Origin: Escherichia phage LHE287 | DNA length: 64,000 nucleotides | Reading direction: 5' to 3' (one strand) | Sequence record: PP761450.1 | Part shown: positions 16,840 through 20,188 of the stretch, in pieces | Position numbering within the stretch: position 1 is the first letter of the stretch | Layout of the letters: each line of letters opens with the position of its first letter | The notes under the pieces: model-generated | Databases searched by the model: none | What the model was told of the DNA's origin: nothing | Seen by the model: the letters and a program-made list of their open reading frames with translations, nothing else | Made by a program: the position numbers and the translations under genes

Positions 16840-17366
16840 TTCACTTCCTCTTTATTGTTGATCGTCGTTAATAATTCTACACCCATAACCTTCTGGGACA
16901 AAATGTTAACCGCCTCTTGGATGCTCTTCAGGGACATTGTCTCAACAAGTGACGATGCGTCATTATGCCGGTCGGTTAGGTACATATTGCGCAGATTGTT
17001 GTAGTTCGTGCGGTTGATGCACGCAGTGTTCAGTGCTATATTCAGGATATACATCATCTGTTCAATGGTTACATCCTTTGGCATAGCGTGGATGTAATAG
17101 ATCGAGCCTTCAAAATAGACGTCTACCAGTTCATCTGGTATCTTGATGCCACCACCGGCATACTCTTCGATCATCCTGAACAGAGACTCTGGTTGCTCGC
17201 TGGCGATCTTATGCGTAACAGTCGCCGAAAGACCGTCGCCCGGTTTAACAGGCCTGGTGTATTCGGTAAAGAATACATTATGACCGCCGCCGATGATGTG
17301 CTCGGCGAAATTAGCGGATGCGTTCGCCGCGTTGTCTGCATGATATGAAACGACGACTGTAAACAT
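16824..17366 (-). CDS. Hypothetical protein
   Basis: 180-aa ORF in the nucleotide-metabolism block. Confidence 0.5.
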   Translation of the reverse strand: MFTVVVSYHADNAANASANFAEHIIGGGHNVFFTEYTRPVKPGDGLSATVTHKIASEQPESLFRMIEEYAGGGIKIPDELVDVYFEGSIYYIHAMPKDVTIEQMMYILNIALNTACINRTNYNNLRNMYLTDRHNDASSLVETMSLKSIQEAVNILSQKVMGVELLTTINNKEEVKWPVH

Positions 17367-17920
17367 TAGAACTCCAGGGTCAGAGGGGTTTCTGCGGACT
17401 TATCGTAACCCGCACCGCCAGCAGCACGCAGACGGTTGCGATCGTTCTTGCGTTTGTGTGCCAGTATGTAAGTCTCAATGTCGATCTCCATATAAGAACA
17501 CGCAGACGACAGGAAGAACATGAGAGTCTCAACGCAAGGATCGTTCATGAATTGCCCAAGGCGGTACGTAACATTGCGATGCCCTACAACACCCAAAGCA
17601 GATGGGGTGAATTCGCGATTACTAAGGACTTCAAATTCTTCTTCGATCTCACCTTTGGTGCGGTCCACAAGGATGAAGCACAACATGAAGTGTACCACGT
17701 CTACCAGTTCATAAACTGCGTTCGTATGGTCAAACCCGATGTCGTTGCCATAGACCTTCCAGTCACGGGTGGTTTCATCAAGGAACTCTGCCCACTCACG
17801 ATAGATAGAGTTGATGACTGCGTTCTGACTCCATACATTCTTCCACTCTTCCCCAAAGTAGGCCACGTTAGTGGCCTTTTGGAGTTCGAGCAGGCTTTTG
17901 ATATGCCCTGCTGTGATCAT
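17366..17920 (-). CDS. All-alpha dNTP pyrophosphatase (gp56 dCTPase/dUTPase-like)
   Basis: YELVDVVHFMLCF and YILAHKRKNDRNR blocks resemble T4 gp56 (ELVDIFHFVLNMF, YYLKNKENFARQDRGY). Confidence 0.55.
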   Translation of the reverse strand: MITAGHIKSLLELQKATNVAYFGEEWKNVWSQNAVINSIYREWAEFLDETTRDWKVYGNDIGFDHTNAVYELVDVVHFMLCFILVDRTKGEIEEEFEVLSNREFTPSALGVVGHRNVTYRLGQFMNDPCVETLMFFLSSACSYMEIDIETYILAHKRKNDRNRLRAAGGAGYDKSAETPLTLEF

Positions 17921-18486
17921 TTACGTTCTCCGTAGAATTTAACGAACGGTGCCCAACCATCAAATGGATTGAGGAATTCGTAGTCCACTTTCATTTGGTC
18001 AATGAAAGCCTCTATATCGTCCTCTATGATACCAGCACGGTCGGCCTTTGAAATACGGGTGATAGGACATTTCGTACTCAGCGCCCATTCATATTCCTGA
18101 GGGGTACGCAGATCGCTCACGATATAATGGACGTGGGGGTTCTGCTCTACCAGAGGAAGCTGGAAGCGCTTGAAGAATGCCAGGAACAGATCGGGTTGTA
18201 CGTAACGCAAGCCCGTATCGCTGCCTAGATGAAGCCAGATCTGCCGTGGAGTTAAGCCCTTGGGGTTATCAGGGTGCACGTAAGGAACGTCCTTCACGGC
18301 ATCCTCTACCTCCGCTGGCAGCCATGGATAGATGTAGTTGGCCACACGGCGCAGTTCATCTGAGAACGAAAGGCGCTGGATGTCCATATCACCCTGTAGT
18401 TGGTGATAGCTGATGAGGGACTCCAAACAGAAGTCCTTACCGGAGCGCTTGCGCCCCGTAAAGAATTCAAGATTTGGATACATCAT
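17917..18486 (-). CDS. Deoxynucleoside monophosphate kinase (gp1-like)
   Basis: N-terminal FTGRKRSGKDF resembles the dNMP-kinase P-loop (GVKRSGKDT in T4 gp1). Confidence 0.5.
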   Translation of the reverse strand: MMYPNLEFFTGRKRSGKDFCLESLISYHQLQGDMDIQRLSFSDELRRVANYIYPWLPAEVEDAVKDVPYVHPDNPKGLTPRQIWLHLGSDTGLRYVQPDLFLAFFKRFQLPLVEQNPHVHYIVSDLRTPQEYEWALSTKCPITRISKADRAGIIEDDIEAFIDQMKVDYEFLNPFDGWAPFVKFYGERK

Positions 18487-19529
18487 ACTACACCTTCCAG
18501 GAACTTAGGATCAATGATCTTGCGGTCAACCGGGGAATGGGTGAGCGCGATGTTCAAGCCATGATCCTGAATCAGGTCCAGGTTAATGAGCTTTTCGTTC
18601 AGTTTGCAGTGCAGACAGTACGCCATCTGTACAATCAGGCCACGATCAGCATCATATTCCTTCAGGTGGGCGACCACAGTTTCCCACGGGCTGCCGATAT
18701 CACAGTGATGAAGCACACCAGTGAACAGATTGCGGATATGGTTCTGGTTGGTCACGTTCGTGAAGTGAATCATGGAGTTGATGAACCCAGCTTCTACTTT
18801 GGTGTCCTTCGTGATCTTGCCAAGCTGCTTCTGGCTGACTTCATTGTTGTAGTAATGAAGATTGTTAGAGAATAGCTTGTACTGACCGACATCAACATCT
18901 AACACCTGAGCAATCACTTCCTGAAGAATAGAGAACTCAATGAAGTTGATTGAACTCATCCCCCACAGAACATCCTGTGAGCGGTTGATGACCGTCAGGT
19001 TCAGACGACCTTCAACGATGGAGAACAACAGAGCCAGATTACACACCATGTCCTTGGTCTTCGCTTCGCCGCTCTCGCTGAACTTCGCCAGACCAGCATC
19101 CGAATCTAGAGCCGGGTCATAGATGGTGAGGTACGCCTGGCGAGTGTTTGGGTTCTTGCGCAGGCGGTTGATAACGCTATCCAGCTGGCCATGGGCGTAC
19201 AGACGCGGACCATAAGCAGCTCGCCATGTTACCCCATCATCCGAAAAGTTAGCAGCGCGAGGCAATACGCGTGACAGGAACTTTATGTCGTTGCGACCTG
19301 ACAACACCCAGAAGGTCTCGCCGATGGCAGCGATAGCCGATGAGTTGCGACCTTCAACGGAGAGCCAGCGGTCACGGATGTCGGCGACGGTTATGGTCAC
19401 GCCATCAAGGAAGCGGGTGCTATCAGTATTGATTTCAGCATTACCAGGATCAGATTCGATCCCGAATTCACGGATAGCCAAGACAGCCTGCTTCAGCATG
19501 TCATTGTTGTTAATTGCTTTGATTTCCAT
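18483..19529 (-). CDS. Thymidylate-synthase-fold pyrimidine hydroxymethylase-like enzyme (dUMP/dCMP hydroxymethyltransferase candidate)
   Basis: Aligns by eye to ThyA: NPNTRQAYLTIYDP (cf. DPDSRRIIVSAWN), catalytic-Cys region MVCNLALLF (cf. APCHAFFQF), NRSQDVLWG...INF (cf. QRSCDVFLGLPFN), LHYY; about 85 aa C-terminal extension. Confidence 0.7.
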   Translation of the reverse strand: MEIKAINNNDMLKQAVLAIREFGIESDPGNAEINTDSTRFLDGVTITVADIRDRWLSVEGRNSSAIAAIGETFWVLSGRNDIKFLSRVLPRAANFSDDGVTWRAAYGPRLYAHGQLDSVINRLRKNPNTRQAYLTIYDPALDSDAGLAKFSESGEAKTKDMVCNLALLFSIVEGRLNLTVINRSQDVLWGMSSINFIEFSILQEVIAQVLDVDVGQYKLFSNNLHYYNNEVSQKQLGKITKDTKVEAGFINSMIHFTNVTNQNHIRNLFTGVLHHCDIGSPWETVVAHLKEYDADRGLIVQMAYCLHCKLNEKLINLDLIQDHGLNIALTHSPVDRKIIDPKFLEGVV

Positions 19530-20188
19530 CAGATACTCCCAAAATCACGACAGAGGAATGCCATCACAGCCTGGTCTACTGTTAGGCCGTGAGACTTCAT
19601 CATACCCGCAGCCACCGTAGGGAACAAGTCTTTATGTCGTTGACGATGGTCATGAACTCTCTCCCACTTCTCGACCACCAGACTTTCATTGAAGTCCACA
19701 CCACCGTTACGTGATTTAACGCGGGAGATACACGTTTCAAGGGGAGTGTCCATAAAGAGCACAACCAATTCACGTGGTGGGCGTGTCAGGCGGGGGATCC
19801 AAGAACTCAATAATGTGGATGGAATGATACCTTCGAAAATCACATCATATTTCAAGTATTCTGGTTGGTCAGCAATAGACAACGCGAACAACATCTGCTC
19901 AGTGTCCTTCAGGGAATCAACCCCCTTGGACTTCGACTTGTCATATTTACCGATACAGACCACGTTGAACGAAGGACAGACAGTCAGCATGACCTTGCCG
20001 TTATGGGTCACGACATACGCCTGAGGATCCCTCTCCGCCAGCTGAGACGGCACAGTGGATTTACCGCTACCATTGGAGCCTTTGACGTAGTAGATTTGCC
20101 CTCGTGCTGGGTAGATCCCCTTTACGACGGGTGGTTTAAAGAATGTGTGGACGGGGCGCTTCATCAGCCCCTTCAGGGAGTAGGACAT
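19529..20188 (-). CDS. P-loop NTPase/kinase, unknown substrate
   Basis: Walker A GSNGSGKST near the N-terminus; 219 aa; start overlaps the stop of the ThyA-fold gene. Confidence 0.55.
   Translation of the reverse strand: MSYSLKGLMKRPVHTFFKPPVVKGIYPARGQIYYVKGSNGSGKSTVPSQLAERDPQAYVVTHNGKVMLTVCPSFNVVCIGKYDKSKSKGVDSLKDTEQMLFALSIADQPEYLKYDVIFEGIIPSTLLSSWIPRLTRPPRELVVLFMDTPLETCISRVKSRNGGVDFNESLVVEKWERVHDHRQRHKDLFPTVAAGMMKSHGLTVDQAVMAFLCRDFGSI

Follow-up and report, generated by a model that had tools for sequence, protein, structure and literature searches.

Escherichia phage LHE287 carries four contiguous genes that constitute the conserved thymidine-replacement module of the Ackermannviridae, as known from phage ViI. 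We consider it highly probable that the module would serve a ViI-type mechanism running through to 5-(2-aminoethoxy)methyl-deoxyuridine (5-NeOmdU), the best explanation of what was found in the window, i.e., the whole stretch of 64,000 nucleotides analyzed. The basis here is the presence of the genes, their orthology and synteny, and the fold and conserved catalytic residues of their products. In the literature, DNA kinase, serine transferase and decarboxylase activities have been demonstrated for the ViI orthologues, and ViI virion DNA has been characterized chemically (PMC8989533; PMC5889632); we infer the activities of the hydroxymethylase, the dNMP kinase and the pyrophosphatase, as well as the final base of LHE287. 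An earlier note on this DNA had proposed synthesis of a 5-hydroxymethyl pyrimidine followed by kinase-dependent hypermodification on the DNA, a guess that orthology to ViI bears out. The pathway is the ViI-type one already described, and the module is real but ordinary for its phage family.

Phage Affiliation and Organization of the Module

The stretch belongs to an Agtrevirus-like coliphage of the Ackermannviridae (Aglimvirinae). Module DNA is 96-98% identical to that of Escherichia phages YX22, RPN242, ZQ1, A221, and AV101, the last of which is classified as Ackermannviridae/Aglimvirinae, and ~92% identical to that of Shigella phage Ag3. The ORF listing gives four contiguous minus-strand ORFs at 17366-17920, 17917-18486, 18483-19529, and 19529-20188, encoding proteins of 184, 189, 348, and 219 aa, respectively; the placement of four consecutive minus-strand genes at 17366-20188 in the earlier note was therefore exact. 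Family matches of all four proteins (Pfam, PHROG) are far above chance, and the gene junctions are stop/start overlaps (TGATG, ATGA, ATGA, and TAATG). Gene order is retained in phages down to 27-46% protein identity. The ViI counterparts gp63, gp65, gp66, and gp67 stand in the same order, with 61, 90, 77, and 88% protein identity, and the genes flanking the module are common to both phages. On the upstream side, the module has a terminator-like boundary, a minus-strand hairpin at 20207-20235 with a 13-bp stem containing 6 GC pairs. After the hairpin come TTTTGTTTAT, then GGAG as the ribosome-binding site, and then the start codon (ATG) of the kinase gene; a terminator is annotated at the equivalent position in the LIMEstone1 record.

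On the other side, an orthologue of ViI gp62 (16824-17366, minus strand; 55% identity) lies between the pyrophosphatase gene and UvsX, which it overlaps by 1 nt (TAATG) and 16 nt, respectively, and is translationally coupled between the two. Its product is an ACT-like protein (Pfam PF24021 ACT_phage, 9.8e-79), and in its AF2 model the N-terminal 100 residues (pLDDT 78-92) form a beta-alpha-beta-beta-alpha-beta unit that finds only weak ACT matches in the PDB (E 4e-3). Farther away, a plus-strand gene at 1459-1968 encodes a dCMP deaminase, as previously noted from the sequence (Pfam dCMP_cyt_deam_1, 4.3e-16); its AV101 orthologue is annotated "Cd allosteric enzyme". The role of dCMP deaminase in the pathway is to supply dUMP to the hydroxymethylase (PMC8989533).

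The ThyA-Fold Enzyme, a Probable dUMP Hydroxymethylase

The 348-aa protein (18483-19529, minus strand) belongs to the thymidylate-synthase (TS) superfamily and is assigned as a dUMP hydroxymethylase orthologous to ViI gp66. Its match to Pfam Thymidylat_synt is partial (2.9e-16, profile positions 54-219 of 266), and its scores with the NCBIfam TS equivalogs, none above 59 bits, all miss the cut-offs of these models, which range over 108-427 (59 bits vs. 327 for the best-scoring model). The top PDB match is the CMP hydroxymethylase MilA at 6e-17, compared with 1e-9 for the best TS. Since every TS threshold was missed and a pyrimidine hydroxymethylase is the best match, a dUMP hydroxymethylase is indicated. 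In an alignment with Td and T4 gp42, of the kind that the earlier note had called for, Glu71, Tyr106, Arg130, Cys163, Arg183/Ser184/Asp186, and His225/Tyr227 are invariant. These include the catalytic nucleophile, Cys163, which is present together with the dUMP phosphate- and base-binding residues of the TS-fold core, and residues 236-348 bear no relation to Td in the alignment. ThyA-like proteins from phages YuA (32%, 2e-28; labeled a putative deoxyuridylate hydroxymethyltransferase in its record) and CP-51 (34%, 7e-26) resemble the enzyme more than T4-type Td does (22-25%, ~1e-4). A canonical ThyA was rejected on the missed equivalog cut-offs, the match to the TS core only and the differing C-terminal segment, in line with the prior impression that this is not an ordinary TS.

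The base-specifying position, which we take to be that of E. coli TS Asn177 and T4 gp42 Asp179, is occupied by Asn195. This residue aligns with the substrate-specifying Asn of T4-type Td, and the presence of Asn where gp42 has Asp points to uracil as the base. A cytosine pathway like that of T4, in which the ThyA-fold enzyme would be a dCMP hydroxymethylase yielding 5-hmdC, could draw on the T4-like neighborhood (41, uvsX, then a DNA-level modifier beside the hydroxymethylase) and on the fact that MilA is a cytidylate hydroxymethylase. Nevertheless, it is vanishingly unlikely: a gp42-type enzyme was rejected on the lack of the cytosine-specifying Asp and on an identity to gp42 of 19%, the phage encodes both a dCMP deaminase and a DNA kinase specific for 5-hmdU, and T is the modified base in the ViI family (PMC5889632). 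The LHE287 enzyme is thus predicted to convert dUMP to 5-hmdUMP, on the strength of its orthology to ViI gp66 and of the 5-hmdU-derived base of ViI (PMC5889632).

The DNA Kinase

The 219-aa protein (19529-20188, minus strand) is a 5-hydroxymethyl-deoxyuridine DNA kinase (5-HMUDK) orthologous to ViI gp67, to which its 88% identity extends across the full length. It matches Pfam PF18748 (HMUDK_HMUD1) with an E-value of 3.6e-109 and 363 bits (gathering threshold 27) over profile positions 1-195 of 196, i.e., full-length. A Walker A motif can be read in the translation as G37-SNGS-G42-K43-S44, and no solved homologue of the kinase was found in the PDB. The gene adjoins that of the dUMP hydroxymethylase with a 1-nt overlap, an adjacency that is also seen in ViI, Vibrio phage K474, and Aeromonas phage TSW001. 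An earlier description of the protein as an orphan P-loop kinase was right about an extra P-loop kinase and wrong about the orphan, given its full-length membership of PF18748 and its kinship to gp67. ViI gp67 phosphorylates 5-hmdU within DNA in vitro (PMC8989533), and with 88% identity to an enzyme active on DNA, the question of a nucleotide or a DNA substrate is settled in favor of DNA. The LHE287 protein is accordingly predicted to carry out ATP-dependent phosphorylation of 5-hmdU in replicated DNA, giving 5-PmdU. The earlier note held that neither the base made nor the substrate of this kinase could be read from sequence; the base can be inferred from orthology and Asn195, and the DNA substrate from ViI gp67.

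A different view of both enzymes is suggested by database labels. On that view, the genes would serve ordinary synthesis of dTMP and dTTP, with the ThyA-fold protein acting as a thymidylate synthase and its 219-aa P-loop neighbor as a thymidylate kinase (or a small terminase), and many GenBank/RefSeq records do read "thymidylate synthase", "putative thymidylate kinase" or "terminase small subunit"; PHROG 800 is likewise labeled terminase small subunit. This reading is already contradicted and in our estimation very improbable. The ThyA-fold protein scores far below the TS equivalog cut-offs, matches the TS core alone and differs in its C-terminal third. The kinase matches HMUDK at 3.6e-109 vs. 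2e-06 for a thymidylate-kinase PHROG, ViI encodes a separate small terminase elsewhere, and ViI DNA is chemically hypermodified (PMC5889632).

Mislabeling of these two genes is a practical point to emerge from our analysis. Many database records give the DNA kinase as "thymidylate kinase" or "terminase small subunit"; for the hydroxymethylase, the label is "thymidylate synthase".

The Pyrophosphatase and the dNMP Kinase

The 184-aa protein (17366-17920, minus strand), an orthologue of ViI gp63, belongs to the dimeric all-alpha dUTPase family of NTP pyrophosphohydrolases. It matches Pfam PF08761 dUTPase_2 (6.2e-09, 36.8 bits against a gathering threshold of 22.9, profile positions 2-159 of 162) and PHROG 173 (2.3e-40). 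All four metal ligands are kept, with E42/E45 and E71/D74 aligning with E46/E49 and E74/D77 of the C. jejuni dUTPase 1w2y. The dUTPase_2 match and these ligands uphold the former assignment as an all-alpha dNTP pyrophosphatase. Identity to the ViI counterpart is the lowest among the four (61%). The enzyme probably clears dUTP and/or dTTP from the pool. ViI encodes another MazG-like enzyme, gp161, and either of the two may be the dTTPase.

The 189-aa protein (17917-18486, minus strand) is a T4 gp1-like dNMP kinase, as had been proposed, and an orthologue of ViI gp65 (90% identity). It falls within PHROG 139 ("deoxynucleoside monophosphate kinase"; 4.9e-47) and carries a P-loop of the G-x4-GKD type (GRKRSGKD; G11-RKRS-G16-K17-D18). 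The top PDB match of its AF2 model (pLDDT 87.9) in Foldseek is T4 dNMP kinase, 1DEK, with an E-value of 9.8e-07, a probability of 1.00 and a TM-score of 0.57. In PDB searches, 1DEK was not found by phmmer (limit E 1) or by a 14-sequence profile (limit E 10), and kinship to T4 gp1 is visible at the fold and PHROG-profile level only. The likely reaction is conversion of 5-hmdUMP to 5-hmdUDP.

Proposed Mechanism and Final Base

The proposed mechanism would begin with dUMP supplied by the dCMP deaminase (1459-1968). The ThyA-fold enzyme would hydroxymethylate dUMP at C5, producing 5-hmdUMP and not dTMP, and the gp1-like dNMP kinase would raise the product to 5-hmdUDP, with a host NDP kinase forming the triphosphate. 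Meanwhile, competing dUTP and/or dTTP would be cleared by the all-alpha dUTPase-family pyrophosphatase, such that the phage polymerase could place 5-hmdU in the positions of T. Once in DNA, the hydroxymethyl group would be phosphorylated by 5-HMUDK to 5-PmdU. Two enzymes encoded outside the window would then complete the modification: a clade-2 aGPT-Pplase would join serine via the oxygen of the serine side chain, after which a PLP-dependent decarboxylase would remove CO2. The expected end product, 5-NeOmdU, would occupy a fraction of the T positions and block many restriction enzymes.

A search of the 64-kb window found none of the serine transferase, the decarboxylase, the second kinase and aGPT-Pplase1. 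In RPN242, the nearest relative, ViI gp160, gp226, gp243, and gp247 have orthologues at 76, 91, 82, and 88% identity, and since the two phages are 98% identical, the later pathway enzymes are probably present in LHE287 as well. In ViI, serine is transferred by gp247 and the decarboxylation is performed by gp226 (PMC8989533). The presence of a ViI-type serine transferase and decarboxylase in the nearest relative argues for the known 5-NeOmdU pathway; of the two options raised in the earlier note, a known pathway or a variant, only the first has stood.

It is nonetheless conceivable, albeit improbable, that the same pre-replicative module and DNA kinase lead to another final base (unprocessed 5-hmdU, O-serinyl-T or another adduct), or to 5-NeOmdU at a fraction far from that of ViI or within another sequence context. 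The downstream genes lie beyond the window, and the extent of modification varies by genus: 5-NeOmdU makes up ~40% in ViI and CBA120 DNA (PMC5889632; PMC11721090) and ~16% in that of the Taipeivirus phiHS2 (bioRxiv 10.64898/2026.05.19.726188). Moreover, the nucleoside chemistry in the papers considered here comes from phages other than Aglimvirinae; for one of the latter, phage PP35, the same genes have already been listed, in a paper that leaves open both how the modification is structured and its ratio (PMC6336734). However, the serine transferase and PLP decarboxylase of RPN242 are 88 and 91% identical to the characterized ViI enzymes, a level that makes altered chemistry unlikely. It is similarly doubtful that the Aglimvirinae carry an adduct, fraction or sequence context different from those of ViI, or that the ACT-like protein is a small-ligand sensor tuning the pathway; the evidence suggests neither. 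With 5-NeOmdU as the favored end product, the module implies resistance of the DNA of these phages to many restriction enzymes, a property that matters for phage therapy, biocontrol, and genome cloning and sequencing. The module itself adds nothing beyond what has been published for ViI, CBA120, phiHS2, and PP35.

Comparison with Known Systems

The closest known system is that of ViI, a Kuttervirus, in which the gp63-gp67 locus is complemented by gp160, gp226, gp243, and gp247 (PMC5889632; PMC8989533). The same four genes recur there with order, strand and flanks unchanged (UvsX and the ACT-like protein at one end, a conserved unknown protein at the opposite end), with protein identities of 61-90%, and the remaining ViI pathway genes are all found in RPN242. 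In contrast, ViI belongs to the Cvivirinae and LHE287 to the Aglimvirinae, and the pyrophosphatase (61%) and the ACT-like neighbor (55%) are clearly more diverged than the kinases (88-90%).

The 5-NedU cluster of Pseudomonas phages of the M6/YuA type shares with LHE287 a homologous dUMP hydroxymethylase (32%, 2e-28), a 5-HMUDK (~30%) and a dCMP deaminase close by. In YuA, however, the kinase, PLP enzyme, radical-SAM enzyme, transferase, hydroxymethylase and polymerase are gathered in one ~8-kb cluster, whereas the pathway of the LHE287 phage family is spread over at least four loci. ViI has no reported homologue of the radical-SAM isomerase, and the final base carries a C-linked aminoethyl group in M6/YuA vs. 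an O-linked aminoethoxy group in ViI-type phages.

The hmU phages of Bacillus (SPO1, SP8, and phi-e; CP-51 was compared here) follow the same logic, with a dCMP deaminase, dUMP hydroxymethylase, dNMP kinase and dTTP/dUTP pyrophosphatase (PMC8989533). Their virion DNA retains 5-hmdU, whereas ViI-type phages process it onward (PMC8989533), and it is the extra DNA kinase, predicted to start post-replicative processing, that sets the LHE287 module apart from theirs. Lastly, the hydroxymethylcytosine system of T4 (gp42, gp1, gp56, and beta-gt) resembles that of LHE287 in its overall strategy, its location by 41/uvsX, a dNMP kinase with the gp1 fold, and a ThyA-fold hydroxymethylase beside a base-decorating enzyme that acts on DNA. 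Unlike LHE287, where Asn195 points to uracil, T4 targets cytosine (gp42 Asp) and decorates it by glucosylation instead of the phosphorylation and amino-acid transfer expected in the LHE287 pathway; at the level of sequence the two are far apart, with 19% identity to gp42 and a similarity to gp1 below phmmer detection.

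Results

The four consecutive minus-strand genes that the earlier note placed at 17366-20188 were recovered by ORF listing at exactly these coordinates, as was its dCMP deaminase at 1459-1968 by a Pfam scan. From upstream to downstream, the module encodes a 5-hydroxymethyl-deoxyuridine (5-hmdU) DNA kinase of 219 aa (19529-20188), a ThyA-fold hydroxymethylase of 348 aa (18483-19529), a deoxynucleoside monophosphate (dNMP) kinase of 189 aa (17917-18486) and an all-alpha dUTPase-family pyrophosphatase of 184 aa (17366-17920). Neighboring module genes share 1 or 4 nt (TGATG, ATGA, ATGA), the pyrophosphatase gene is joined via TAATG to a minus-strand gene for a 180-aa ACT-like protein (16824-17366), and the latter overlaps uvsX by 16 nt; translational coupling therefore runs through all six genes. 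Between the module and the upstream gene lies a terminator-like hairpin (20207-20235, minus strand; 13-bp stem), after which come a GGAG ribosome-binding site and the kinase ATG. The hairpin is strong and lies immediately upstream of that ribosome-binding site; its center reads CTATAATAG, with TATAAT across the loop. A promoter scan returned 18 sigma-70-like sites vs. 11.9 ± 3.6 in shuffles, none of them convincingly placed ahead of the module or between hairpin and module.

By megablast, the module matched 264 phage records. The best matches (96-98% identity, 100% query coverage) were Escherichia phages YX22, RPN242, ZQ1, A221, PC3/PH4, and AV101, followed by Shigella phage Ag3 and relatives (~92%) and Dickeya Limestone-like phages (~90%). 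AV101 is classified in the Aglimvirinae (Ackermannviridae), and gene order in the window is collinear with both AV101 and Salmonella phage ViI, the reference for the pathway considered here. RPN242, the nearest relative, is 98% identical to the window in module DNA and 100% in the kinase protein.

As the earlier note had supposed, the ThyA-fold protein does not resemble a canonical thymidylate synthase (TS). It covers the core of the Pfam TS model alone (profile positions 54-219 of 266), and NCBIfam TS equivalogs score at most 59 bits against cut-offs of 108-427. The closest solved relative in the PDB is the CMP hydroxymethylase MilA (6e-17), with the best TS far behind (1e-9). Likewise, T4-type Td (22-25% identity, ~1e-4) is much more distant than the homologs from phages CP-51 (34%, 7e-26) and YuA (32%, 2e-28; a putative deoxyuridylate hydroxymethyltransferase by its annotation), and the ~110 C-terminal residues are unrelated to Td. 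ViI gp66 is 77% identical. When the protein was aligned with ViI gp66, YuA gp17, CP-51 gp100, T4 gp42, and T4-type Td, the catalytic Cys (C163) was invariant, as were E71, Y106, R130, R183/S184/D186, and H225/Y227. At the position that specifies the base, the protein shares an Asn (Asn195) with Td; the dCMP hydroxymethylase gp42 carries Asp there. A dCMP hydroxymethylase was rejected partly on this basis, and since Asn195 matches Td rather than gp42, the alignment points to uracil as the probable substrate base.

The 189-aa protein had no significant match in Pfam or, by sequence, in the PDB, and a profile of 14 close homologs gave only marginal phosphomevalonate-kinase P-loop matches against the PDB. 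It does belong to PHROG 139, "deoxynucleoside monophosphate kinase" (4.9e-47), and its confident AF2 model (pLDDT 87.9) had T4 gp1 dNMP kinase (1DEK) as top Foldseek match (E 9.8e-07). The anticipated kinship with gp1 is thus visible only through structure prediction combined with Foldseek. ViI gp65 is 90% identical. The 184-aa protein falls in the dimeric all-alpha dUTPase family (PF08761, 6.2e-09; PHROG 173, 2.3e-40), retains all four acidic metal ligands seen in Campylobacter dUTPase, and shares 61% identity with ViI gp63, in line with the all-alpha dNTP pyrophosphatase that had been proposed.

The extra P-loop kinase is a full-length member of PF18748, "5-hmdU DNA kinase" (363 bits, E 3.6e-109), with the Walker A loop GSNGSGKS and 88% identity to ViI gp67. 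A PDB search returned generic P-loop noise only and no solved homolog. With the kinase in PF18748 and the TS equivalog scores below their cut-offs, the pairing of a canonical TS with a thymidylate kinase was rejected, a reading echoed in some records that label the 5-hmdU DNA kinase "thymidylate kinase." Many other RefSeq/GenBank phage records, including ViI Vi01_061c, call it "terminase small subunit," the same label as that of PHROG phrog_800. ViI has a real small terminase, Vi01_162c, separate from Vi01_061c, and that identity was rejected as well.

The ACT-like protein (Pfam PF24021), coupled between pyrophosphatase and UvsX, is 55% identical to ViI gp62. Its AF2 model is moderate (pLDDT 70.6): the first 100 residues model well as a generic ferredoxin/ACT-like fold, the C-terminal half and its helices poorly. 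Foldseek returned weak ferredoxin-like and ACT matches (E 4e-3 or worse). No homolog was detected at the equivalent position in Vibrio phage K474 or Aeromonas phage TSW001, and hhalign found no homology with the protein at that position in K474.

Elsewhere in the window, a minus-strand ORF of 1124 aa (40687-44061) had no Pfam match at E ≤ 0.01; the ViI ORF at the corresponding position, orf00109, has only ~800 aa. A NAPRTase-family gene (Pfam 4.1e-32) within 62390-64000 adjoins a VWA-domain protein (59878-62121). When the stretch 62390-64000 was compared by blastn with the equivalent 8 kb of RPN242, a phage otherwise 98% similar, nothing matched, a difference that fits the reported NAMPT/RPPK gene variation among Agtrevirus phages. 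In RPN242 (23440-27622), the DNA polymerase gene is annotated as two pieces with an ~880-bp ORF between them, and a SegD-type homing endonuclease lies just upstream of the second 5-hmdU kinase. Both look like mobile-element insertions at the other modification locus, outside the window.

Discussion

Protein matches and ViI orthology uphold both the observations and the interpretation of the earlier note, which had proposed a hydroxymethyl-pyrimidine pathway with a kinase step. In the model published for phages of the ViI type and related ones, dUMP comes from dCMP deaminase and is converted to 5-hmdUMP by a hydroxymethylase homologous to TS, phage dNMP kinase and host NDP kinase yield 5-hmdUTP, and phage pyrophosphatases/phosphatases deplete dTTP and dTMP. 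The polymerase places 5-hmdU into DNA, where 5-hmdU DNA kinase phosphorylates it; a clade-2 aGPT-Pplase (gp247) then swaps the phosphate for the side-chain oxygen of serine, and PLP-dependent gp226 decarboxylates the adduct to 5-(2-aminoethoxy)methyl-deoxyuridine (5-NeOmdU) (PMC5889632; PMC8989533). Purified ViI proteins reconstituted the DNA kinase (gp67, gp243), transferase, and decarboxylase activities (PMC8989533); we found no direct assays of the ViI-type hydroxymethylase, dNMP kinase, or dUTPase-family enzyme in PMC5889632 and PMC8989533.

Judged by sequence, the window holds the predicted whole pre-replicative part of this pathway and its first post-replicative enzyme. Orthologs of ViI gp160, gp226, gp243, and gp247, which in ViI sit at loci other than that of the module, were not found in the 64-kb window by tblastn or by Pfam on 20 further ORFs. 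RPN242 carries all four (76, 91, 82, and 88% identity to ViI, respectively), and because of this, the end product is most likely 5-NeOmdU.

The module and all findings on it are already described. The ViI papers contain the locus and its genes (PMC5889632; PMC8989533), they are listed according to function in a 2019 paper on PP35, a phage of the Aglimvirinae (PMC6336734), and a 2024 review describes the modification genes as conserved throughout the Ackermannviridae (PMC11721090). A 2026 preprint reports chemical confirmation of 5-NeOmdU in a third genus (phiHS2, Taipeivirus; bioRxiv 10.64898/2026.05.19.726188).

Vibrio phage K474 and Aeromonas phage TSW001 keep the order kinase, hydroxymethylase, dNMP kinase, pyrophosphatase, ~200-aa gene, UvsX, small gene, and helicase. 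Since this order persists at protein identities of only 27-46%, it supports the view that the four module genes would act as one functional unit. The neighborhood is also T4-like: 14016-20188 carries a gp41-like helicase, a small gene, and uvsX, then the ThyA-fold hydroxymethylase beside a DNA-level decorator, analogous to 41, 40, uvsX, segA, beta-gt, and 42 of T4. The decorator of the hydroxymethyl base on DNA is a beta-glucosyltransferase in T4, whereas in this phage it is a DNA kinase.
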